From an uncultured Rhodospirillales bacterium (GTDB lineage: Bacteria > Pseudomonadota > Alphaproteobacteria > CAAGCB01 > CAG-977), in the NCBI GenBank assembly GCA_902777205.1, contig CACYSU010000005.1:9362-73361 (forward strand): a stretch of 64,000 nt of DNA. The letters run 5' to 3'. Shown here in pieces: positions 9,408 through 20,679 of the stretch (the first letter of the stretch is position 1; the number at the start of each line of letters is the position of its first letter). Below the pieces are notes generated by a model, which did no database searches, was not told the DNA's origin, and saw only the letters and a program-made list of their open reading frames with translations. The position numbers were made by a program, and so were the translations under genes.

Positions 9408-10265
9408 ATGGTTATGGCTGAAAACGGGGAACGGCCGATCGTCGTCAAACGCGTGAAAAAAGGCGGGCACGACGCCCACGGCGGATCGTGGAAAGTCGCC
9501 TACGCCGATTTTATGACGGCGATGATGGCGTTTTTCCTGTTGATGTGGATTTTGCAGACGACATCCAAGGAGCAGAAAGAGGGCATCGCGCAGTATTTCA
9601 CGACGGGGTCGGTGATGAATTCGTCCACGTCGGGCGGCGACACGATTTTGACGGGCGGTCAGGAATCTTTGGAAACCGCCGCCGCGCCGCAAGCCTTGCC
9701 CTTTGTCGGTTTCGACGGGTCGAACGAATTTCCCGTCCTTTCCCCGCAGCGGGAACGGCTGGTCGAAAAGGAAAAAGAGCTGTTCGGCCGCGCCCGCATC
9801 GCGTTGGAGGAAGCCATGCGTTCCGACGCCGATTTGATGGAACTGCACGACAGTCTGGTCGTTTCCGAAACCAAAGAGGGATTGCGGATTCAGCTGATCG
9901 ACCAGCTGAACCGCCCCCTGTTCGTCAGCGGATCGGACGAACTGACCCCGAACGGGGCGCGTCTGACGGGGTTGCTGGCGCGCGTGTTGAAACAGATGCC
10001 TCATTCCCTGTCGATCGAGGGGCACACCGACGCCGTCCCCTTCGCCGGCAAGAACGGGTATTCCAACTGGGAACTGTCGTCCCAGCGGGCTTTGGCGTTC
10101 CGGCGTCGGCTGATCAAACTGGGCGTCGCGGAGGAAAAGATCGTCCGCGTCGTCGGCAAGGCATCCACCGAACCGTATTTGAAAAACGATCCGCAGGCGC
10201 CGCAGAACCGCCGGATCAGCGTTTTGCTGCCGTCGTTGGTGACGGATGAAAAGGACGACGATTAG
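9408..10265 (+). CDS. motB: Motor stator protein MotB (OmpA-like peptidoglycan-binding domain)
   Basis: GGHDAHGGSWKVAYADFMTAMMAFFLLMW is the canonical MotB plug/TM region and includes the conserved Asp. The C-terminal OmpA-like domain contains NRRISV. The RBS is GGAGGG, and the gene lies 12 nt after motA. Confidence 0.82.
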   Translation: MVMAENGERPIVVKRVKKGGHDAHGGSWKVAYADFMTAMMAFFLLMWILQTTSKEQKEGIAQYFTTGSVMNSSTSGGDTILTGGQESLETAAAPQALPFVGFDGSNEFPVLSPQRERLVEKEKELFGRARIALEEAMRSDADLMELHDSLVVSETKEGLRIQLIDQLNRPLFVSGSDELTPNGARLTGLLARVLKQMPHSLSIEGHTDAVPFAGKNGYSNWELSSQRALAFRRRLIKLGVAEEKIVRVVGKASTEPYLKNDPQAPQNRRISVLLPSLVTDEKDDD

Positions 10266-11374
10266 GGATTTTTATCCGGAACGATGTCAATGACGACGTA
10301 TTCGGATTTGGTGCCCGTTTTAAATTTGATCGCCCAATCGGACAGTCCCGACGTGACGATGAAATCCGTGTTTTCGCGACGCTCGAACCCATAAGTTTTG
10401 TCGTTCGCGCCGATCCATACGCCGACATCGTTCAGCGGGAAAATCTGCCCGCCGTGGGTGTGTCCCGACAGCACCAGATCGACGCCGGATTCCGCCTGCT
10501 TTTTATAATCGTTCGGCTGGTGATCCAAAACGGCGGCGTATTTCGACCGATCCAAACCTTTGACCAAACCGGCCATTTCCGCCCGTACGCCGCCGCGGTA
10601 TTTTTCGCCAGCGTCCTGCCGCCCGATCAAAACGATGTCGTCGCGGATCGGGGCGGTTTCATCCTGCAAAACGGTCACGCCGTTCTTTTCCAATTCGGCG
10701 ATCAGGTCGTCGCCCGTGAAACCGCGGCGTTTCGGATCGTAATACCCTTTGTCGTGATTGCCGAAAACAAAGAAAACGCCGTGCTTCGTTTTCATTTCGC
10801 CCAACGCTTCGGCGGCCGCGACCATATCGGCGCGGGAGGTGCCGTCGTCAACGAAATCGCCGACAATGACGACGACATCCGGATTTTCGGTCTGCATGGT
10901 TCGGATGTGTTTGGCGAATCCTTTGCCGTCAAACGTCGTGCCGATGTGCGAATCGGCGAATTGGACGATGCGGATCGGGGCGGAAACTTTCGGCGACGCA
11001 ATCGTGTAGCGCGTCGCCCACACGCCGTGGTCAAGCGCCCAGCCCGCCGTCAAAACGGCAACGCTGAAAACGACGGCAACCCAACCGGCGTAATAACGCT
11101 TTTGCGGTTTTTTGAAAAACAGGGCGGCAAAGTCGCAGATCAGCCAGACGCCCGTGAAATGGATCAGGCAGACGATCGCGTTCATCGTGTTCAACACGGC
11201 GCACAAAACGCCGAACAGGGCGGCGACGGCCATAAAATCGAATGTGTAGGCCAAAATCCGCTTGTCCGTGAATTTGCGCGACATGCCGAATTTGTACAGA
11301 CGGGACGCCAGATATAAAACGCCGAAGGCGGTTGCAATCATTGTAACGGTAAAGATGACCAGCCACATTTTCAT
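10262..11374 (-). CDS. Membrane-anchored calcineurin-like metallophosphoesterase
   Basis: N-terminal TM helices are followed by the metallophosphatase motifs QFADSHIG, GDFVDDG, GNHD and GHTHGG. Its start overlaps the stop of the upstream polyferredoxin gene as ATGA (11371-11374). Confidence 0.8.
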   Translation of the reverse strand: MKMWLVIFTVTMIATAFGVLYLASRLYKFGMSRKFTDKRILAYTFDFMAVAALFGVLCAVLNTMNAIVCLIHFTGVWLICDFAALFFKKPQKRYYAGWVAVVFSVAVLTAGWALDHGVWATRYTIASPKVSAPIRIVQFADSHIGTTFDGKGFAKHIRTMQTENPDVVVIVGDFVDDGTSRADMVAAAEALGEMKTKHGVFFVFGNHDKGYYDPKRRGFTGDDLIAELEKNGVTVLQDETAPIRDDIVLIGRQDAGEKYRGGVRAEMAGLVKGLDRSKYAAVLDHQPNDYKKQAESGVDLVLSGHTHGGQIFPLNDVGVWIGANDKTYGFERRENTDFIVTSGLSDWAIKFKTGTKSEYVVIDIVPDKNP

Positions 11375-12642
11375 TTTTGCAAAATCCTTTGTTCAAAAAC
11401 GGGTTCGACGAAAATCGCCTGAACGGGGCAGGCGTTTTGACACGCGCCGCATCCGACGCATTTGTCCGCGCTGATGCGGGGCGGTTCGCCGTCCGCGCGT
11501 TCGATGATTTGGCGCGGGCATTTCATGACGCACAGGCCGCACCGGACGCACGCGTCTTCGTCCACGCGCGCCACGCCGATCTGCGTTCTTTGCTTGACGG
11601 GCAGGGGCAGGCGTTCAATCGCGCCGGACGGGCAGACATCGCCGCATTCGTGACAGTCGAAAGCGCAGAAATTGTTTGAAATGTCCAGATGAACGGCGGG
11701 AAAGTTCCCGTCCGCCTTTTTCAAAATCTTCATCGGGCAGTTTTGAACGCACAGATTGCAGTTCAAACACCGGTTCGCCAGCCTTTGCGCGTTTTTCGCC
11801 CCCGCGGGCAGCAGGACGTTTTTGACTTTGGCGAACGCCTTTTTGCCCAACGCCGCGCCGCCGCCGATCATGGCCGCGAACAACGCCGCCGCCGCGCCCG
11901 CCCGCAGCATTTCGCGGCGATCCGGATCGGTCGGGGCGTCGCTCTTTGCCGCCTTGCCGTAGCGCAGGGCTTTCCTGCGGCAGGTGTTCAGGCATTTGAA
12001 ACATTTGACGCACGTTTCGTTGTCAACGGTTTTTGATTTGAAATCAATGCATCCCGCGGGGCATTTCATCGCGCACAATCCGCACGACACGCATTTGTCC
12101 GCGTCAACGGCGATTTTGCTGCGGGCGTGTTTGGAAATCAGCCCCAGCACCGCGCCGACGGGACACAGGTTCGTGCAGAACCGCCGCCCCTTGAACCAGA
12201 CCAGAACGGCCAAAACCGCCAGAAAGACCAGACCGAACGCCGCGCCCGACACCGCCGACACGAACATCGTGTAGGGTTCGATTTGCCGTAAAACCAGCGC
12301 GGAACCGCCGATCGTCGCGCCGAACGCCGCCGCGGCGATGAAATATTTGTACGCGCGGTTCTTTTGCGGTTTTTGTTTGCGGCGGAAAACGATCGTCAGC
12401 AGTTCCTGAAACAATCCCAGCGGGCAGACGGTCGAACAATACACCCGCCCGAACACGGCGGTGACGATTAAAACACCCGCCAGAACCACCGCCGCGCCCC
12501 ACGAAAACGCGGTCAGGTTCCTTTGGAACACGGCGGAAAACTGAACGTCGAACACTTTGACGGGATAAAACGCCCCCGTCATGCCGCCGACCAGCAGAAC
12601 GGCGATCAAAGCGGCGCAAATCAAACGGATTTTATACAGCAT
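11371..12642 (-). CDS. Membrane-bound polyferredoxin of the NapH/MauN/CcoG family (multiple 4Fe-4S clusters)
   Basis: Two CxxxCP motifs sit in the TM region (CSTVCPLG, CTNLCPVG). Six CxxCxxCxxxC(P) ferredoxin motifs follow: CVSCGLCAMKCP, CVKCFKCLNTC, CLNCNLCVQNCP, CHECGDVCP, CVRCGLCVMKCP and CVGCGACQNACP. I prefer the start at 12642 (MLYKIRL...) because AAGGA sits 8 nt upstream. The ORF track extends to 12684. Confidence 0.75.
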   Translation of the reverse strand: MLYKIRLICAALIAVLLVGGMTGAFYPVKVFDVQFSAVFQRNLTAFSWGAAVVLAGVLIVTAVFGRVYCSTVCPLGLFQELLTIVFRRKQKPQKNRAYKYFIAAAAFGATIGGSALVLRQIEPYTMFVSAVSGAAFGLVFLAVLAVLVWFKGRRFCTNLCPVGAVLGLISKHARSKIAVDADKCVSCGLCAMKCPAGCIDFKSKTVDNETCVKCFKCLNTCRRKALRYGKAAKSDAPTDPDRREMLRAGAAAALFAAMIGGGAALGKKAFAKVKNVLLPAGAKNAQRLANRCLNCNLCVQNCPMKILKKADGNFPAVHLDISNNFCAFDCHECGDVCPSGAIERLPLPVKQRTQIGVARVDEDACVRCGLCVMKCPRQIIERADGEPPRISADKCVGCGACQNACPVQAIFVEPVFEQRILQK

Positions 12643-12653
12643 GGCTTTAATCC

Positions 12654-13310
12654 TTACAAACCGCACAAAATCGCCGCGCCGCACGCCATGATCGTGCCGC
12701 CCGCGATTTCATGGGCGTATTGTTCCAAACGTTTGAAACGCATCGCGCTGATGCCCAGAACGCCGAACGCGACGGCGATCATCATCGTGGCGATGGTCGC
12801 GACGGAAAAGATGAGCGTCGAGGAAACGACGGCGGAAATGCCCATGACGCTGGCCGCGGTCAGGATCGGCAGCAACGCTTCGCACGGGCCCAGAACGAAA
12901 ATGATGAACAGCACCCAGACGGAAACGCTTTTGCCGTCGGCGGGGGTGATGAAATGCGTGTGTTCCGCGCCGTGTTTGTGCTGCCAGCGGTGTTTCAGCG
13001 CCCACAGCAGGTACGCCGCGCCCAGCCCGATCAGGGCGTAGGCCGCGATGTCGCCGCGGTTGTCTTCGATCCACATGAAATTTTCTTCGCTCAGCCAGCG
13101 GGAAAAGTAAATGAACGCCAGCGCGATCATCAGCGCGCTGACAATATGCCCGATGCCGCACACGAACGTCAGCGCCAGCGTTTTTTTCAGGCTGTATCCG
13201 CGGATCTTGCCAATGGCGACAAAGGGCAGGTAATGGTCGGGACCCGTTATCGTGTGAACGACCGCCGTTAAAAACGCCGTCGCCCACAAAGCCGTCAAAG
13301 TTGCCGTCAT
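12654..13310 (-). CDS. Putative Ni/Co transporter-like membrane protein (NicO/RcnA/UreH-like, with a His-rich loop)
   Basis: 218 aa with about 6 TM helices. It has a GPDHY motif near TM1 and a central His-rich loop (KHRWQHKHGAEHTHF), typical of Ni/Co permease or efflux families. I inferred the family from motifs only. Confidence 0.45.
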   Translation of the reverse strand: MTATLTALWATAFLTAVVHTITGPDHYLPFVAIGKIRGYSLKKTLALTFVCGIGHIVSALMIALAFIYFSRWLSEENFMWIEDNRGDIAAYALIGLGAAYLLWALKHRWQHKHGAEHTHFITPADGKSVSVWVLFIIFVLGPCEALLPILTAASVMGISAVVSSTLIFSVATIATMMIAVAFGVLGISAMRFKRLEQYAHEIAGGTIMACGAAILCGL

Positions 13311-14119
13311 AATTCATTTCCTTTCAAATCAAAATCAAAGCATCCGGAACGGAATCCGTCCAGATCCAAAGTCGTAAAGTCGAATCCCAGCCGTTTCATT
13401 TCCGCGGCGATTTCCGCGGCGCGCGCGGCCAAGGCCGGAATCGCGGGGGCGGACACTTCAATCCGCGCCAGATTTTTATGAACGCGCAGACGCACGTTTT
13501 GAACGTCGGGGAACAGATGTTTTAAAAACGCCTCGCCCTTTTCCACCCGTTCGATCGCGTCTTCGGTCAAAACCGTGTCGTATTCAAACCGCGTCGCCAG
13601 ACACGGGGCGGCGGGTTTCGACGCGGTCGGCAGCCCCAGCCGCGCGGACAGGGCGCGAATGTCGGCCTTTGAAAATCCCGACAGCGGGGAAAGGATTCCG
13701 GATTCCCTCAACGCCTTGCGTCCGGGGCGGTAGGCGTGCGCGTCGTCGCCGTTCGTGCCGTCGATGACGTGTTTGAACCCGTGTTCCGCCGCGTATGCCA
13801 GAAATTGGCCGAAAACCGCCTTTTTGCAATGATAACAGCGATCGACGCGGTTGCGGCGCACTTCGTCGATCGACAGCGGGTTGAACGTGAAAACGCGATG
13901 TTCGACGCCGAACCGTTCGGCAAAATCGGCGGCTTCGGCGGATTCGGCGGGCGGCTGCAGCACCGTCCGCATTGTCAGCGCGACAAGGGGGAACGGCCGT
14001 TCGCGCCGCATATCCGCCAGCACCGCCAGCAAAAGCGAGCTGTCAACCCCGCCCGAAAACGCCAGCGCGATTCCGTCGGCGCAAAGTGGTTCCAGCCGTT
14101 GTTTCAACGCGTCAAGCAT
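13307..14119 (-). CDS. larE: ATP-dependent sacrificial sulfur transferase LarE (PP-loop ATP pyrophosphatase)
   Basis: Contains the PP-loop SGGVDSS and the conserved catalytic Cys in AAPCLATRF. It is 270 aa. Its start overlaps the larC stop by 8 nt. Confidence 0.85.
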   Translation of the reverse strand: MLDALKQRLEPLCADGIALAFSGGVDSSLLLAVLADMRRERPFPLVALTMRTVLQPPAESAEAADFAERFGVEHRVFTFNPLSIDEVRRNRVDRCYHCKKAVFGQFLAYAAEHGFKHVIDGTNGDDAHAYRPGRKALRESGILSPLSGFSKADIRALSARLGLPTASKPAAPCLATRFEYDTVLTEDAIERVEKGEAFLKHLFPDVQNVRLRVHKNLARIEVSAPAIPALAARAAEIAAEMKRLGFDFTTLDLDGFRSGCFDFDLKGNEL

Positions 14120-15350
14120 TGTCGTTTTCCTTTGCCGCGCGCCGCGCCGCGTCGAAAATTTCGCGAAACGGCAGGCCGCAGGATTCCGCCGCCCGTTTGA
14201 CGCTTTCGTATTCGGGATTGTAGCGCGCGATGTCGCCCAGCGTGCATTTTTTGACCTCTATTTCGCCGCAGGGCAGGGCGACGCGCACGATTTCGCGATC
14301 CATGCACCGCCGTTCCACCGCGTATTTGCGCAGCCCGATCGTGGTCGTATTGCGGAAAATGATATCCTCCATCACGGGCAGGCGTTTCGAGGCCGCGACG
14401 ACGCGCAGCATATACGCGGGACGGTTCTTTTTCATAAAGCACGGTTCGAAATGCACGTCCGCCGCGCCCGCCGCGAACAGCTTTTCCATCGCCAATCCCA
14501 GCTCTTCGGCCGTCGAATCGTCAATGTTCGTTTCAATGACGTACATCTGATCCGCGTCCGTTTCGTCGTCGATCAGCATCGCCCGCAAAAAATTCGCGCG
14601 GTGAAAGTCGCGCTTGCCCAATCCGACGCCGGATTTTTTGATCTTGAACGACGCCGGCAGCTTTTCCGCCGTGCGGACGGCCGCGGCGATCGCGATGCCC
14701 GTCGGCGTCACCATTTCCCCGTCAACGTCCGTCGGGCGCAGAGGGACGCCGCGCGATTCGGCGATGTTCAAAACGGCGGGGACGGGCACGGGCAGGACGC
14801 CGTGCTGACAGGTGACGAAACCGCGTCCCTCGTTCAATCCGTCAACGATGACGTTTTTGACGCCCAGATCGTCGATCAAAACGGCGGCGGCGATGATGTC
14901 AACGATGGAATCGACCGCGCCGACTTCGTGAAAATGGACTTCCTCCACCGCGCAGCCGTGGGCTTTGGCTTCGGCCTCGGCGACGATTTGAAAGATTTTT
15001 TTCGCCAGATCGCGCGCCGCGGCGGTGATGTCCGCATGGTCGATGATGTGGAAAACGTCGGCCAAATGGCGGTGTTCGTGAGGGTGATGATCGTGGCTAT
15101 GGTCGTGATCGTGGTCGTGGTCATGGTCATGATCGTGGTGATGTTCCGCGCGCGTCAGCCGCACGTCGAAATCCAGCCCCGAAACGCCGTAGGACGATTT
15201 GCGTTCGACCGCCCAGTCGAATTCCCCCGCGGGCAGGCTGGCCAAAGCGGTTTTCAGCTTTTCGACGCTCGCCCCCAGATCCAGCAAAGCCGCGACGGTC
15301 ATGTCGCCGCTGATGCCGCTTTTGCCTTCCAGATACAGATATTCGGTCAT
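14112..15350 (-). CDS. larC: Nickel-pincer cofactor nickel insertase LarC (DUF111)
   Basis: YLYLEGKSGISGDM N-terminus, the HEVGAVDSIVDIIAA and TTTIGLRKY motifs, and a His-rich stretch (HHHDHDHDHDHDHSHDHHPHEH). I prefer the ATG at 15350, which overlaps the larB stop as ATGA. The ORF track starts at 15377. Confidence 0.85.
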   Translation of the reverse strand: MTEYLYLEGKSGISGDMTVAALLDLGASVEKLKTALASLPAGEFDWAVERKSSYGVSGLDFDVRLTRAEHHHDHDHDHDHDHDHSHDHHPHEHRHLADVFHIIDHADITAAARDLAKKIFQIVAEAEAKAHGCAVEEVHFHEVGAVDSIVDIIAAAVLIDDLGVKNVIVDGLNEGRGFVTCQHGVLPVPVPAVLNIAESRGVPLRPTDVDGEMVTPTGIAIAAAVRTAEKLPASFKIKKSGVGLGKRDFHRANFLRAMLIDDETDADQMYVIETNIDDSTAEELGLAMEKLFAAGAADVHFEPCFMKKNRPAYMLRVVAASKRLPVMEDIIFRNTTTIGLRKYAVERRCMDREIVRVALPCGEIEVKKCTLGDIARYNPEYESVKRAAESCGLPFREIFDAARRAAKENDNA

Positions 15351-16024
15351 TTGTGAATCCTTTGCAAAATTTTGCACGCCTGCACCGCCGCGCCGAAACC
15401 GTTGTCGATGTTGACGACGGAAATCCCTTCGGCGCAGGAATTCAGCATGGTCAATAACGCCGCCAGCCCGTGAAACGACGCGCCGTAACCGACCGATGTC
15501 GGCACCGCGATGACGGGCGCGTCCACCAATCCGGCGACGACGCTTGCCAGCGCGCCTTCCATGCCGGCGACGGCGATGACGACGTCGGCTTGGCGGATCG
15601 CGTCGATTTTCGACAGCAAACGGTGGATGCCCGCGACGCCGACATCAAAGTGCCGGTCAACCGCCGCTCCGAAAAACGCGGCGCAGACGGCGGCTTCCTC
15701 GGCGACGGGCAGGTCGGCCGTTCCGCCCGTGCACACGGCGATCCGGCCGTTCAGGCGTTTTTGTTCGCCGGCGTTCAGCGCGATCGTGCGGGAAGCGGCG
15801 TCGTATCGCGCCGCCACCCCCGCCGATTGAACGAAAGCCGCCTGTTCGGGCGAACAGCGCGTTCCCAGAACCCGACAGCCCTTGTTTGCAAAGGCCGCCA
15901 GTATTTTCGCCAGCTGTTCGTTCGTTTTGCCCGCGCAATAAACGGTTTCGGGCAATCCCGTGCGGTCGGCGCGGGTCGTGTCCAGCTTGGCGAATCCCAA
16001 ATCTTCAAACGCGTTGTCCGTCAT
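15347..16024 (-). CDS. larB: Pyridinium-3,5-biscarboxylic acid mononucleotide synthase LarB (PurE-like)
   Basis: GGTADLPVAEEA, VIAVAGMEGALASVV, VIAVPTSVGYG and VVNIDNGFGAA are the LarB/PurE-like signature blocks. It is 225 aa. Confidence 0.85.
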   Translation of the reverse strand: MTDNAFEDLGFAKLDTTRADRTGLPETVYCAGKTNEQLAKILAAFANKGCRVLGTRCSPEQAAFVQSAGVAARYDAASRTIALNAGEQKRLNGRIAVCTGGTADLPVAEEAAVCAAFFGAAVDRHFDVGVAGIHRLLSKIDAIRQADVVIAVAGMEGALASVVAGLVDAPVIAVPTSVGYGASFHGLAALLTMLNSCAEGISVVNIDNGFGAAVQACKILQRIHK

Positions 16025-16028
16025 GGTT

Positions 16029-17267
16029 TCACCCCTCGAACGTTTTGGCGACTTCTTTCATCCATTGACTGATTTCGATGTGCTGCGGACAATGCTTTTC
16101 GCACATTCTGCACCCGATGCAGGACGACGCCTTGCCGTGTTCCTTGATCAGGTTGGCGTAATACATGCGCTGGGCATTGAACGGTTTGTCCGAACGTTCC
16201 TGCTTTTCCGCGTTGTACAGCGCGAAATAGTCGGGGATCGCGATTTTCATCGGACAGAATTCGACGCAGTACCGGCACGCCGTGCAGGGGATCGCGATTT
16301 CGTCGTGCAAGGTCTTGATCGCTTTTTCGATCGTGCGCGTTTCCGCGTCGTCCAGCGGTTTGAAATTTTGCATATAGGACGTGTTGTCCAACAGCTGTTC
16401 CATATTGCTCATGCCGCTTAAAACCATCATGACGCCGGGCAGGGACGCGACATAGCGGATCGCCCACGACGCGACGGACATATCGGGTTCGGCGTCCTTG
16501 AAAATCTTTTCAACCGACGGGGGTACCATGGCCAGCGAACCGCCCTTGACGGGTTCCATGACGACGACGGGTTTGTTGTATTTCTGCGCGATTTCATAGC
16601 ATTTGCGCGATTGGATGCTGGGGTTGTCCCAGTCGATGTAGTTGATTTGCAGCTGGACGAAATCGACTTCGGGGTGGGCTTTCAACACCTGTTCCAACAA
16701 ATCGGCCTTGTCATGGAACGAAAAACCGATGTTTTTGATTTTGCCTTCTTTTTTCTTCTGCGCGATGAAACCGAAGCAGTCGTATTTGTCAACGTTGGGC
16801 AAAGTCGTCGCGTTGACGTTGTGAACCAGATAGTAATCGAAATAATCCAGTCCCGTTTTTTCCAGCTGTTTGTTGAAAATGGTTTCGCGATCCTCCGCGC
16901 TTTTCAAATAACCGGCGGGCAGCTTGCTGGCGACGGTGAACGTGTTGCGCGGGTGGCGTTTGACCAGCGATTCGCGGATGGCGATTTCGCTTTCATATCC
17001 CATGTACATCCATGCGGTGTCGAAATAGGTGAATCCGCGTTCCATGAACGTGTCCACCATTTTGTTCAGCGTTTCATAGTCGATGGCCGTCTGGTCGTCG
17101 GGGTTTTTCAGCGGCAGGCGCATAAACCCGAACCCCAGTTTGTTTTTGGGGTTGACCTTGTCTTTGACCGATTGCGAAACAGGGATCGTTTCCGCCAGCG
17201 TCAGTTTGGGCAAAGCCGTCAGGGCGAACGTGGCCAGCGTGCTCATCAAAAATTGTCTTCTGTTCAT
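16029..17267 (-). CDS. Tat-exported aldo/keto reductase fused to a C-terminal 4Fe-4S ferredoxin domain
   Basis: The real start is at 17267 ([27 protein letters not shown], a twin-arginine signal) with GGAGG 8 nt upstream. The ORF-track extension to 18305 is an open high-GC frame. The protein has an AKR TIM-barrel ([11 protein letters not shown] ... VMEP) and a C-terminal Cys-rich region ([12 protein letters not shown] ... [12 protein letters not shown]). Confidence 0.75.
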
Positions 17268-17349
17268 ATCGAAACCTCCAAGAATGATATGAAACAGGAT
17301 AGGTTTTAAAGCGAACTTTAAGTCAAGTGTTTTTTTGCAAAAAGGAAAA

Positions 17350-17368
17350 GGGGGCGCGCCCCCTTTTT
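17350..17368. terminator. Rho-independent terminator after rlmI, insulating the upstream edge of the lar operon
   Basis: GGGGGCGCGCCCCC palindromic stem followed by TTTTT, 16 nt downstream of the rlmI stop. Confidence 0.55.
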
Positions 17369-17383
17369 CCAACCGGCCGCGGA

Positions 17384-18592
17384 TCAGTCGATCTGGCAGA
17401 CCAGCATTTTCAAATACGCCGTTTCGGGCAGCAGCGGGTGGACGGGGTGGTCGGGGCCCGCGCCGGCCTGTAAAATGACGCGGCCGGTTTTGCCGGCTTC
17501 GGTCAATCCGCGCATACATTCGGTGAAAAACTCGTCGGGTTTGACATGGTGCGAACACGACCCCAATGCCAGAATGCCGTCTTTTTCCACCAATCCGGCG
17601 GCCAGACGGGCGACTTTGCGGTATCCGCGCAAACCGGCCTGAATGTCCTTTTTGACTTTGGCGAAAGCGGGGGGATCGCAAATCACGACGCCGAATTTTT
17701 CCTTGTCCCTGTTCATATTTTCCAAAACGTCGAAAGCGTTGTCCCTGATCCACGAACATTTGTCCTGCAATCCGTTGGCCGTTGCCGCCATTTGCGCCAA
17801 CGCCAAAGCGTTTTCGGAACGATCGACGCCGATAACCTCTTTGGCGTGGCCGATCCCCGTGTGCAGGGCGAATCCGCCCGCGTAGGTGTAAAAGTCGATG
17901 CACCGTCTGTTCGGCGCCAGACGGCCGACAAAGGAACGGTTTTCGCGCTGGTCGTAAAACCATCCGGTTTTCTGCCCCTCTTTCAAATCGGCGAAAAAGG
18001 AGATGCCGTTTTCGCACACGGGCACAACGTCGGGCAGGGCGCCTTTGGCCACTTCGTACAGCGGATCCAATCCCTCCAGCGCGCGGGCGGAGCTTTCGGC
18101 GCGCAAAACGATGCAGGACGGGCGCAGCACTTCGTCCAGCGCGGCGACGATTTCGTTTTTCAGCGCGTCCGTCCCCGCCGTGTTCAGCTGGCAGGCGACG
18201 ATGTCGTCGAACCGGTCGATGACCAGCCCCGGCAGGCCGTCGCCTTCGGAATGAACCATGCGGTAGAACGGCGAATTGACCAATGCGTCGCGCAATGTGA
18301 CGCACCGGCGGAATTTTTTGGCGAAAAAGGAGGCGTCGATCGCGGTTTGCGGATCGGCCGCCATTTTGCGGAACGAAATCAGCGAATGGGGATTGAACGA
18401 ACCGACTCCGATAAACGTGTCGGCCGCGTCATGCAGGCGAACCAACGTCCCCGCGGGAATGTTTTTGGTTTCGGCGGTCATGTCGATTTCGTTCGAGAAA
18501 ACCCACGGACTGCCGGATTTCGCGCGTTTGGCGCACCCTTGTTTCATCTTTACGACGGGATAATTTGTATTTTTCATGGCGTTTGTGTTCAA
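17384..18592 (-). CDS. rlmI: Class I SAM-dependent 23S rRNA methyltransferase (RlmI/RlmK-like, PUA-like N-terminal domain)
   Basis: 402 aa. An N-terminal PUA-like domain is followed by a Rossmann SAM-binding fold ([18 protein letters not shown]). Confidence 0.7.
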
Positions 18593-18639
18593 CCTCTTTT
18601 AAACTGCATGAAAACGTTTTTAACACGACAGAGGCGCAA

Positions 18640-20679
18640 ATGCCAAAAAAAGAAATAACTTTTTCCGCCGGCGACGTTCTGTTCAAACAGGGCGACCCGT
18701 GCACGTCGGTTTACACGATCGTTTCCGGCAAGGCGGAGCTGTTTTACGAAATCAACGGCAAAGCCCGCGTTTTGGGGCGCAAGGGCGAAGACGACCTGCT
18801 GGGCGCGAACAGCGTGTTGGAGGGGGCTTACGACACGGCGGCGCGGGCGGTGACCGACCTGACCGTCACCGTGCAAACCGCGGACGAATATATCGAACAG
18901 CTGCAGCGGTCGGGCGAATTGTCGCCGTCGGCCGGCGCGCCCGCCAAAGTGTCCGCGTCTTTTGACGGCGGCGATGACGACGACGACTTTTCATTCAGCT
19001 TCGGCGGCGATGACGAAGAGGAGGAGGAAAAGCCCGCGCGCCGTTCCGGCCGACCGCCGCGTTCCGCCGTGCCGCGCCGCGGCAGGTCAACGGCCGTGAC
19101 GCGGACGGATATGGCGGAGGATGAAGAGGACGAACCCGCGCCGGTCAAGGGCAAATCGTCCGCTCTGGTTCATGTGGAAAAACCGAAGCCGGCCGCCGCG
19201 CCCGTCGTTTTAAAGCCGGTCGTCCTGCCGGCCGAAATTAAAAAATCGCCGATCCGCGAATGGCTGCGCGAAGGGGCGGACGAAACACCGTCGTTCGGCG
19301 CGGTCGTTTTGCTGGCCAGCATCGCGGGCGACGACGACGGATCCGTGCGCGACGACATTTTCCGCACTTTGCGTCAAATCCCGAATATGCAGGTCACGGT
19401 CGTTGACAAGGCCGTCGCCGATTCCGACGTCCGCCGCGGGGCGATGCAGGTGCGCGCGTGGCTGGAACAGCACACCGCGGACGCGGGGTTGTACGCCGTT
19501 TTGGACAACGCGGGGCGGGTGTTGGAATTTCACACGGTGCGGCCGGTTTCCGGCAATGAAAGCGCGCCGTTTTCCGCCGGAACGCGCTTTTTCCTGCCCG
19601 TGCGGATGAGCGACGAGCAAAAAACGCTGCTGAAGATATTCACGGTGTGCGCGCTGACGCCGACGCGGTTGGAACACGAACAGTTGCTGCGACTGTTCGT
19701 GCCGTCCCTGATCGGCGAAGTCGCCGCCTACGCGTCAAAGCCGATGGTCGGTTTGACGCCGGAGGAACAGGCCGTCAACCTGACGGCGTTCGCGAACGTC
19801 CTGTCGTGGATCAGTTTCATGACGCCCGAGGAAAACCGCCAAAATCAGGCCGCCGCACTGTATGAACAGGCGTTGACCCTGCTGCCGGCGCACGCGCCCG
19901 AATACGTGTTCGTCAACCGTCAGGTCGGGTTGCTGCGCCAGTTGGAGGGCGAACGCCGCGACAGCGTCGAAGCCTTTAAAGTCGCCGAGGAAACGTTCCG
20001 CAAAGGGTTGGCGGCGGTTTCGGAAAAATACCAGCCGGCCGCTTTTGCCGATTTGAATTTGCGCATCGGCAACGTGCGCCAGAAAATCGCCCTGCAAACC
20101 GGCGACGGTGAGGATTTTTCCGCCGCGATGACGGCGTACCGCGACGCGCTGAAAGTGTTGAAGCCGTCGGGCGACGCCGAACGGTGGGCGGACACGGTCA
20201 ACGGGTTGGCGCGCACGATGCAGCTGTTTTCGTCCTACAGCACGAAAACGACGCTGTTGAAAAAGGCGGTTGAGCTGTATGAAAAAGAGCTGAGCGTTCT
20301 GGACAGGGACGAACATCCGATGCTGTTCGGGCGGGCGTGCAACAATCTGGCGTCGGCGCTGTTCCTGTTGTCGGACAGGGAGGGCGGCAAGCCCGATCTG
20401 CTGCGCCGCGCGGTCGAAGTGTTTTCCGACGCTTTGCGGATTTACGACAGGGCGGGGGCGCGCCGGATGGCCGATGTCGCCGACAGCAACCTGAAACGTG
20501 CGGAACGGGCATTGGCGCGCACGGAAAAGGAATTGGAAAAGAACAAAAACTGGCTGGACGACATTTTGAACGACGGCGGCGAAACGGACGCGGACGCGGA
20601 TACGAATACGGACGCCCCCGCCGAAGAACCGCTGACCTTTGAACGCATTGCCGTGTTCGAGGAATTAGACGACGAATAA
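18640..20679 (+). CDS. Multidomain protein: N-terminal cNMP-binding domain, acidic/basic disordered linker and a C-terminal TPR-like helical domain
   Basis: The ATG at 18640 begins MPKKEITFSAGDVLFKQGDPCTSVYTIVSGKAELFYEINGK, a Crp-type cyclic-nucleotide-binding fold. A DDDDDFSFSFGGDDEEEEE linker and an Arg/Pro-rich segment follow, then a roughly 400-aa helical-repeat region. I recognise no named family. Confidence 0.6.
   Translation: MPKKEITFSAGDVLFKQGDPCTSVYTIVSGKAELFYEINGKARVLGRKGEDDLLGANSVLEGAYDTAARAVTDLTVTVQTADEYIEQLQRSGELSPSAGAPAKVSASFDGGDDDDDFSFSFGGDDEEEEEKPARRSGRPPRSAVPRRGRSTAVTRTDMAEDEEDEPAPVKGKSSALVHVEKPKPAAAPVVLKPVVLPAEIKKSPIREWLREGADETPSFGAVVLLASIAGDDDGSVRDDIFRTLRQIPNMQVTVVDKAVADSDVRRGAMQVRAWLEQHTADAGLYAVLDNAGRVLEFHTVRPVSGNESAPFSAGTRFFLPVRMSDEQKTLLKIFTVCALTPTRLEHEQLLRLFVPSLIGEVAAYASKPMVGLTPEEQAVNLTAFANVLSWISFMTPEENRQNQAAALYEQALTLLPAHAPEYVFVNRQVGLLRQLEGERRDSVEAFKVAEETFRKGLAAVSEKYQPAAFADLNLRIGNVRQKIALQTGDGEDFSAAMTAYRDALKVLKPSGDAERWADTVNGLARTMQLFSSYSTKTTLLKKAVELYEKELSVLDRDEHPMLFGRACNNLASALFLLSDREGGKPDLLRRAVEVFSDALRIYDRAGARRMADVADSNLKRAERALARTEKELEKNKNWLDDILNDGGETDADADTNTDAPAEEPLTFERIAVFEELDDE

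Follow-up and report, generated by a model that had tools for sequence, protein, structure and literature searches.

Through the analysis of a 64,000-nucleotide stretch of genomic DNA from an uncultured Rhodospirillales bacterium (contig CACYSU010000005.1, referred to below as the window), a gene has been characterized whose predicted product combines a twin-arginine (Tat) signal peptide, an aldo-keto reductase (AKR) barrel and a ferredoxin-like domain with motifs for two [4Fe-4S] clusters. The gene for this protein, called here AKR-ferredoxin, lies directly upstream of the nickel-pincer cofactor genes larB, larC and larE, and the same unit encodes a membrane polyferredoxin resembling NapH and NapG (the NapHG-like protein). 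AKR-ferredoxin is best filed among the nickel-pincer-dependent AKRs, as an iron-sulfur (Fe-S)-fused, Tat-exported and NapGH-coupled form of these enzymes. The coordinates of all features are collected in Table 1.

The original prediction, made from this DNA alone, had described a Tat signal, an AKR barrel and a tail of about eight cysteines in ferredoxin-like spacing, encoded by the first gene of a lar operon, and each of these elements has been borne out. The Pfam model Aldo_ket_red (PF00248) matches residues 43-317 with an E-value of 4e-49 (167.6 bits against a cut-off of 24). In the C-terminal domain several dicluster models pass their cut-offs, with Fer4_9 reaching 37.2 bits against 27 on residues 328-396 and Fer4_17 29.2 against 22.2. 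Alignment with the solved canonical AKR Tm1743 identifies a matching catalytic tetrad, D83, Y88, K115 and H149, and these residues are retained in at least 137 of 151 family representatives. The ferredoxin-like domain contains exactly eight cysteines, C328/331/334/338-P and C383/386/389/393-P; seven are invariant and C383 is conserved to at least 90% in a 48-sequence family alignment, and two more cysteines, C164 and C223, lie outside the domain. The AlphaFold model built on the same alignment has a mean predicted local distance difference test score (pLDDT) of 90.9 and a predicted TM-score (pTM) of 0.83. It comprises eight barrel strands and a ferredoxin domain with a pLDDT of 77-97, and its disorder is confined to residues 1-40, as expected for a signal peptide plus linker. 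In Foldseek searches of a PDB copy running to April 2026, the barrel alone was matched, exclusively by nicotinamide-dependent AKRs and with E-values down to 1e-15. No flavin domain was found in the protein by the Pfam scan. The identical protein is encoded, in an unchanged gene order, on 12 metagenome contigs; named relatives are labelled “MAG: Alphaproteobacteria bacterium” and the samples are from gut and rumen.

The genes of the unit follow each other successively: AKR-ferredoxin, larB, larC, larE, a 218-residue membrane protein, the NapHG-like protein and a phosphoesterase, with overlaps or gaps of at most 12 nucleotides. A terminator-like hairpin upstream is read as the end of the RlmI-like methyltransferase gene and thus as the 5' boundary of the operon, so that the AKR-ferredoxin gene would open a new unit. 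Its stop codon (16029-16031) is separated from the larB ATG (16022-16024) by 4 nucleotides. The open reading frame (ORF) of larC extends to 15377; the likely start is the ATG at 15350, giving a 4-nucleotide overlap with the larB stop. LarB, LarC and LarE each score above the NCBIfam equivalog cut-offs. No LarA was found among ten long ORFs of the window and the Pfam-annotated flanks, a check that was not exhaustive.

It has been reported that AKRs encoded beside larBCE bind the nickel-pincer mononucleotide and not NAD(P)H (Semersky et al., Nat Chem, June 2026, PMC13524815). That study started from LarC neighbourhoods without LarA and found AKRs beside lar genes in 427 cases. Its enzyme NphT, which acts on aldoses, binds the cofactor covalently (+450 Da; structure 9YEB at 1.3 Å) and retains the AKR tetrad as D47, Y52, K75 and H106. 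The nickel ligand is H144, two residues past T142, and the cofactor is tethered to K200, right after I199; both His and Lys are present in 34% of the lar-adjacent AKRs and His only in 40%. LarB, LarE and LarC alone suffice for the synthesis of the cofactor in vitro (PMC13524815).

The spacing of the corresponding residues in AKR-ferredoxin follows that of NphT at consistent offsets: +36 for the tetrad Asp and Tyr, +40 for Lys, +43 for His and +41 for S183/H185 against T142/H144. These offsets would place H185 (codon 16713-16715), part of the S183-F184-H185 end of barrel strand 5, at the nickel-ligand position. In the canonical “GVSNF” of Tm1743 the Ser is followed by Asn-Phe, where the AKR-ferredoxin family has Phe-His, and H185 is present in 150 of the 151 representatives. 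The counterpart of the tethering K200 would fall in the segment M237-E238-P239-V240-K241 after strand 7 (K241 codon 16545-16547); measured from the strand-5 Ser it is V240-K241, a good match to the I-K of NphT, and measured from the strand-8 Gly it is M237. Taken together, the gene context and the His support the membership of AKR-ferredoxin in the nickel-pincer AKRs, and its use of the pincer cofactor is considered moderately probable. NphT (9YEB) was not among the best 60 of 169 PDB sequence matches of AKR-ferredoxin, nor was it recovered with residues 176-320 as the query. Plain lar-adjacent AKRs that could stand in for NphT have also been sought. On plasmids, tblastn with LarC gave 109 records, from which seven loci were taken; five were scanned with the family profile, and for the other two the annotation was used. 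Only the Clostridium butyricum locus has an AKR, and this AKR is itself an AKR-ferredoxin. On metagenome contigs, a LarB-seeded scan of 80 loci gave a sole AKR (L119), which is short (256 residues) and divergent, with S-A-K at the His position. Neither source gave a usable stand-in.

An exhaustive search of 1.8 billion cluster representatives revealed 7,635 relatives of AKR-ferredoxin, of which 1,093 have an E-value up to 1e-30; the family details given here derive from the best 150. The family, with more than 7,600 clusters at 50% identity, ranges over Clostridia, Bacteroidales, spirochaetes, methanogens and the Alphaproteobacteria considered here, and is marked throughout by the motifs GFSFHD and MEPVKGG. 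Among the 150 representatives, 100 are 355-400 residues long, and the great majority start near query residue 42, hence without a signal peptide. Lar genes lie within about 10 kb at four of 80 species-level loci with a relative: L007 and L008, which are Alphaproteobacteria with the Tat form and adjacent lar genes; L066, a Lachnospiraceae metagenome-assembled genome with AKR-ferredoxin, larB and larC; and L072, from Robinsoniella, with a merR-type gene followed by larE, larB, larC and AKR-ferredoxin. On a megaplasmid of C. butyricum (L087) the order is flavodoxin gene, larB, larC, larE, energy-coupling factor (ECF) transporter, AKR-ferredoxin; the last (WP_071981854.1) is signal-less, 372 residues long and 58% identical over the full length, and no larA is annotated in the 19-kb stretch examined.

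In a neighbour-joining tree, rough and built without support values, the lar-adjacent members occupy four separate places, namely C. butyricum, L066, L072 and an alphaproteobacterial clade (the window, L104, L007 and L008). The link to lar genes is thus no peculiarity of one subclade, and the possibility that these members form one specialised subfamily is rejected on their positions in this rough tree. The functional link to the lar cofactor pathway proposed in the original prediction gains from this repeated adjacency and from the published pincer binding by a lar-adjacent AKR (PMC13524815). The frequency of four in 80 suggests an enrichment over a background of about 0.1% (427 of about 370,000 AKR sequences, PMC13524815), the denominators of the two figures not being strictly comparable.

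Several observations weigh against this assignment. The placement of H185 at the nickel-ligand position comes from spacing, and the candidate positions for a covalent Lys, M237, E238 and K241, are not told apart by it; K241 itself is Lys in 107 and Arg in 37 of the 151 representatives. The carboxamide-binding Gln of NAD(P)H-using AKRs is kept as Q207. A barrel-plus-ferredoxin fusion is absent among solved structures in PDB sequence and Foldseek searches, and the literature search returned no functional study of AKR-ferredoxin fusions, none of which has been characterised. To our knowledge, one-electron exchange between Fe-S clusters and the nickel-pincer cofactor is without precedent. With regard to export, tatA and tatC were not found within the 64-kb window. 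Finally, lar genes are not present within about 10 kb at 76 of the 80 species-level loci and at four of nine alphaproteobacterial orthologs. At L099/L100 an intact Tat-AKR-ferredoxin gene is followed by the remnant of a deleted lar region (L099 10378-11065, and the L100 remnant), in which LarB residues 1-160 run, with a change of frame, into the C-terminal 75 residues of the 218-residue membrane protein. The deletion of about 2.6 kb has removed the 3' end of larB, larC, larE and the 5' part of the membrane protein gene; its occurrence in two independent samples indicates a lineage that lost the adjacent cofactor genes and retained the enzyme gene. Homologues found broadly without lar genes had been named in the original prediction as evidence against it, and this is what the neighbourhoods show; they weaken the pincer link and do not overturn it, since those genomes may have lar genes at other places.

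The lar-less neighbourhoods would suit an explanation that we regard as unlikely, in which a Tat-exported AKR-ferredoxin carries tightly bound NAD(P), like the glucose-fructose oxidoreductase of Zymomonas, or works without a nicotinamide-type cofactor, and the lar genes serve another enzyme elsewhere, for example a LarA homologue. Most homologues and four of the nine close orthologs are not beside lar genes, the L099/L100 lineage kept the enzyme without them, and a LarA may be encoded in the genome outside the window. The retained Q207 and full tetrad are as a nicotinamide enzyme would have them, yet the carboxamide-binding Asn beside the conserved Ser has become Phe, and the near-invariant His that follows stands at the published nickel-ligand position. 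The 4-nucleotide junction with larB and the lar adjacency in four branches are likewise hard to ascribe to chance, and the passage of a hydride from NAD(P)H to single-electron Fe-S clusters normally takes a flavin, for which this protein has no domain.

A flavin is offered by a further explanation, in which the barrel binds another cofactor, e.g. flavin mononucleotide (FMN) at the phosphate-binding end, bridging substrate and Fe-S clusters, and H185 has a different role. Enzymes that combine a TIM barrel with Fe-S clusters and use flavin do exist, such as dihydropyrimidine dehydrogenase and trimethylamine dehydrogenase; flavodoxin-like neighbours occur in L101, L103 and C. butyricum, and H185 and the Fe-S domain are family-wide where lar adjacency is rare (4/80). 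We know of no flavin-binding AKR, however, the structural matches are all nicotinamide-dependent AKRs, the AKR acid-base tetrad is intact, and the repeated adjacency to lar genes would be left unexplained, so that this explanation appears improbable.

The assignment of AKR-ferredoxin to Tat export draws on the motif, on how well it is conserved and on the neighbouring genes. The N-terminus comprises (i) an RRxFL twin-arginine motif; (ii) a hydrophobic core; (iii) a c-region Lys; (iv) a T-L-A cleavage-type site, followed by ET. Some 75 distinct N-termini of orthologs (77-100% identity) all preserve M[NKQ]RR[EDQT]FL, the hydrophobic core and LPKLT[LFI]A, elements that lie upstream of M8, the alternative start at which some gene callers began (405-residue versions). 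Such conservation is good comparative support for a functional Tat signal. Within the wider family such a signal appears as an exception and no family trait: an RR motif with a hydrophobic stretch occurs in only three of the 150 representatives, each of them also with a lipobox Cys. Since the periplasm is without a pool of NAD(P)H, an AKR acting there would need a pre-loaded cofactor.

The Tat-bearing members share a distinct neighbourhood. A NapHG-like homologue, 34-38% identical to that of the window, adjoins AKR-ferredoxin in all three distant Tat-bearing representatives, and in two of these lineages it is directly followed by tatA-tatC: L092 encodes two Tat-AKR-ferredoxin copies, NapHG, TatA and TatC, L095 one copy with the same partners, and L094 NapHG followed by two copies. 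The tandem pairs belong to the lipoprotein-type lineage (L092 8688-11239, L094 10001-12478); the first copy of L092 is called as two ORFs of 50 and 354 residues, which may reflect a frameshift. Among the alphaproteobacterial species the NapHG-like gene is adjacent in seven of nine and tatA-tatC in five of nine, which brings the loci with tatA-tatC to L007, L008, L098, L101, L103, L092 and L095. Among 78 signal-less loci (L009-L086), by contrast, NapHG similarity is found once, as a short ferredoxin-domain match in L058. In L101 and L103, where no lar genes adjoin, the gene right after Tat-AKR-ferredoxin (11249-11842 and 11244-11813, respectively) encodes a flavodoxin-like protein (Flavodoxin_4 / FMN_red) bearing a Sec-type signal, which may serve the module as an additional electron carrier in the periplasm.

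The N-terminal, NapH-like half of the window's NapHG-like protein contains four transmembrane helices, two CxxxCP motifs and two Fe-S motifs; the C-terminal, NapG-like half contains four Fe-S motifs, and the halves are joined by PDRREML and a fifth transmembrane helix. An internal RRxF/L precedes this helix in all four NapHG-like proteins compared (PDRREML, PSRRNFI, LERRKFL, MERRELI), which suggests that Tat translocates the C-terminal domain, with its four clusters, of a polytopic membrane protein. The scores lie far below the family cut-offs (NapH TIGR02163, 97.4 bits against 213; NapG NF007012, 53.7 against 269), and the protein is accordingly described as resembling both families, with membership in neither; its features suggest a NapH-NapG fusion whose C-terminal half is taken to the periplasm by Tat. 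Across the loci the AKR-ferredoxin gene thus appears as a hub between two sub-modules, larBCE with the membrane protein and NapHG with TatAC. The conserved signal, together with tatA-tatC and NapHG-like genes with an internal RR near Tat-bearing homologues, agrees with the earlier proposal that the enzyme would be exported folded and cofactor-loaded, and we consider export together with the NapHG partnership very likely.

The same evidence bears on two remaining explanations. AKR-ferredoxin could be an accessory of pincer synthesis or repair, such as a reductase acting on an intermediate, and not a user of the cofactor; it heads an operon that otherwise serves to make the cofactor and to supply nickel, yet LarB, LarE and LarC alone make the cofactor in vitro (PMC13524815), and a biosynthetic helper would be neither Tat-exported nor paired with NapGH-like and tatAC genes in lar-less loci, which makes this role highly improbable. 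There is equally little to recommend an uncleaved anchor or a wrong start at the RR stretch, with a cytoplasmic enzyme as in most relatives: 147 of the 150 representatives are signal-less, some callers start at M8 and the window has no tat genes, but the signal elements upstream of M8 are kept in about 75 orthologs and tatA-tatC with an internal-RR partner is adjacent in several lineages.

The reading of AKR-ferredoxin as an exported nickel-pincer AKR leads to a mechanism in which the 218-residue membrane protein would supply nickel to LarC, and LarB, LarE and LarC would make the pincer mononucleotide. Still in the cytoplasm, AKR-ferredoxin would fold and be loaded with two [4Fe-4S] clusters and with the pincer mononucleotide, which would take the position of NAD(P)H in the AKR barrel. 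The folded holo-enzyme would then be exported via Tat and its signal peptide removed. In the periplasm, the tetrad would act on an alcohol, hemiacetal or carbonyl substrate, with hydride passing to or from C4 of the pincer; the clusters would exchange the two electrons, one by one, with the NapG-like half of the fused protein in the periplasm, and the NapH-like half would in turn exchange them with the quinone pool. Nickel supply, cofactor synthesis, loading and Tat export rest on the genes present and on what is established about Tat and Lar; cofactor occupancy, electron transfer between Fe-S clusters and pincer, the direction of the reaction and the substrate are what we infer. By standard potentials, the oxidation of an aldose or alcohol towards menaquinone is downhill, and an ordinary carbonyl reduction by menaquinol is not. 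Resting on genomic evidence, the full mechanism of a periplasmic nickel-pincer and Fe-S oxidoreductase coupled to the quinone pool is given about an even chance.

The nickel-position His in 150 of 151 representatives and the scatter of lar-adjacent members over the tree prompt a wider and more tentative proposal, in which the whole AKR-ferredoxin family would consist of nickel-pincer and Fe-S enzymes, and the pincer, in the role of a flavin, would convert between hydride and single electrons. The partners of cytoplasmic members would be ferredoxin or flavodoxin, and the rare Tat-exported ones would form, with the fused NapH-NapG protein, a periplasmic respiratory module not known before. We hold this extension to be doubtful.

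With NphT-type AKRs, AKR-ferredoxin shares the AKR fold with its D-Y-K-H tetrad, the gene by larB, larC and larE with no larA nearby, the His two residues past a conserved Ser/Thr at the end of strand 5, and the loss of the carboxamide-binding Asn. NphT itself is a cytoplasmic, monomeric protein of about 290 residues without an Fe-S domain, and it passes hydride from one substrate molecule to another without a net flow of electrons, whereas AKR-ferredoxin adds a two-[4Fe-4S] domain, a Tat signal and a NapGH-like membrane partner. The cytoplasmic AKR-ferredoxin fusions, which we take to be COG1453, have the same two-domain architecture, invariant cysteines and both family motifs at 40-66% identity; they differ in being signal-less (147/150) and in almost always missing NapHG-like and tatAC neighbours. 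As in NapGH and NosGH, the quinol dehydrogenase modules that serve periplasmic reductases, a NapH-type membrane protein with four transmembrane helices and CxxxCP motifs is associated with a Tat-targeted poly-[4Fe-4S] domain of NapG type that faces a Tat-exported periplasmic enzyme; in contrast to them, NapH and NapG are fused here around an internal twin-arginine motif, and the client is an AKR instead of a molybdo- or copper enzyme. The LarA lactate racemase superfamily receives its cofactor from the same LarB, LarC and LarE proteins, has a fold unrelated to the AKR and catalyses racemisation or epimerisation with no net redox change. The glucose-fructose oxidoreductase of Zymomonas mobilis is also periplasmic and owes its Tat export to a nicotinamide-type cofactor that is tightly bound before the enzyme leaves the cytoplasm; its fold is that of Gfo/Idh/MocA proteins, the cofactor is NADP, it has no Fe-S cluster and no respiratory link, and it reacts by a ping-pong between two sugars. 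A Tat-exported acetol dehydrogenase described on bioRxiv was rejected as a related system, being an unrelated GMC flavoprotein.

The original prediction had recognised no described system in this architecture and genomic context. The association of AKRs with lar genes has since been published (PMC13524815), and to that extent the claim no longer holds; the Fe-S-fused, Tat-exported and NapGH-coupled form does remain undescribed, the text of PMC13524815 having no mention of ferredoxin, 4Fe-4S, iron-sulfur, twin-arginine, periplasm or signal peptide. In the literature search no paper was found that ties the pincer cofactor to Fe-S-fused or exported AKRs. The parts needed for a test all sit in one operon, and the cultured relative C. 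butyricum, which has a cytoplasmic version, is convenient for testing that form.

So far as we are aware, the nickel-pincer cofactor has been known only in enzymes that hold and return a hydride, the LarA racemases and the NphT shuttle, all of them cytoplasmic. If AKR-ferredoxin carries the cofactor, it would be the first nickel-pincer enzyme with a predicted export route, with Fe-S wiring of its own and with a tie to a membrane electron-transport module, and it would perform net redox chemistry with hydride-to-electron conversion without flavin. A very large uncharacterised family, common in gut anaerobes, would thereby receive a function, and for the many genomes that contain larBCE and lack larA there would be one concrete answer to the older question of what enzymes the cofactor serves.

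Table 1. Coordinates of the AKR-ferredoxin operon in the window, with the loci and gene orders compared (AKR, AKR-ferredoxin gene; membrane protein, the 218-residue protein)
Feature	Position	Strand	Basis or remark
AKR-ferredoxin gene (Tat signal / aldo-keto reductase / 2x[4Fe-4S] ferredoxin fusion)	16029..17267	minus	412 aa
Twin-arginine signal peptide, residues 1-25	17193..17267	minus	predicted cleavage after TLA
AKR TIM barrel, residues 43-317	16317..17141	minus	Pfam, alignments, AlphaFold, Foldseek
Ferredoxin-like domain, residues 328-397, two CxxCxxCxxxCP motifs	16077..16286	minus	Pfam and family alignments
larB	15347..16024	minus	NCBIfam LarB 288.9 bits, cut-off 175
larC	14112..15350	minus	NCBIfam LarC1 198.8, cut-off 90; LarC2 138.6, cut-off 50
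larE	13307..14119	minus	NCBIfam LarE 254.6, cut-off 150
218-aa six-helix membrane protein, putative Ni2+ permease	12654..13310	minus	motifs, co-variation with lar genes
NapH-NapG-like fused membrane polyferredoxin, 423-437 aa	11371..12642	minus	ORF extends to 12684
Membrane-anchored calcineurin-like metallophosphoesterase, last gene of unit	10262..11374	minus	4-nt overlap with NapHG-like gene
Intrinsic-terminator-like GC-rich hairpin AAAAGGGGGCGCGCCCCCTTTT, then T-run CCTTTTTG	17346..17367	minus	terminator scan
C. butyricum lar/AKR-ferredoxin run (L087)	NZ_CP013238.1, 591856-599465	same-strand genes	ECF transporter of CbiM/Q/O type
NapHG-like gene compared, window	11371-12684	minus	
NapHG-like gene compared, L092	11239-12558		
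NapHG-like gene compared, L094	8892-10004		
NapHG-like gene compared, L095	11267-12529		
Gene order, window and L104			AKR, larBCE, membrane protein, NapHG
Gene order, L007			AKR, larBCE, membrane protein, NapHG, TatA, TatC
Gene order, L008			NapHG, TatA, TatC, AKR, larBCE, ~1.1 kb gap, membrane protein
Gene order, L098			NapHG, TatA, TatC, AKR
Gene order, L101			NapHG, TatA, TatC, AKR, flavodoxin-like gene
Gene order, L103			AKR, flavodoxin-like gene, NapHG, TatA, TatC
Gene order, L102			AKR alone
Gene order, L099/L100			AKR, then deletion remnant (LarB / membrane protein)

Among the other genes of the unit, the 218-residue membrane protein contains HTITGPDH and GPCE motifs and a His-rich loop, KHRWQHKHGAEHTH; within its family H19-x3-G-P-D-H26 and G141-P-C-E144 are invariant. 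No Pfam or NCBIfam model matched it, even at E = 10, its relatives are unnamed or “hypothetical” throughout the best 120 of 1,522 (E up to 0.001), and its best fold match, CcdA (5vkv), has a TM-score of 0.49 and is not significant. Across the alphaproteobacterial loci the protein tracks the lar genes and not NapHG or Tat, and is always encoded beside the former. From its motifs and this co-variation it is named a putative nickel permease.

LarC carries a His/Asp-rich insert, HHHDHDHDHDHDHDHSHDHHPHEH, at residues ~78-101 of the long ORF, which is probably a nickel-collecting stretch; the insert also gave a spurious weak match to a nickel/cobalt efflux family. LarE possesses SGGVDS and CYHC...PCLATR, i.e. 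a CXXC...C motif, which marks the [4Fe-4S]-dependent, catalytic and non-sacrificial LarE type (PMC9283937). The NCBIfam model calls the LarE of the window “sacrificial” despite this motif.

The metallophosphoesterase gene at the end of the unit is not present at the corresponding place in the related loci L007, L008 and L104, and is therefore probably not a core part of the system; in L102 a Metallophos gene lies about 3 kb upstream on the other strand. In the window it stands where relatives have tatA-tatC. No Rfam family matched within 9800..18800 at E up to 1, and no sigma-70 promoter was found upstream of the AKR-ferredoxin gene on the minus strand. At 18565-20679 (plus strand) a 704-residue protein is encoded that has a cyclic-nucleotide-binding domain at its N-terminus, a long low-complexity stretch of acidic character and a C-terminal part without a family match; its gene is conserved beside the operon in the same species.

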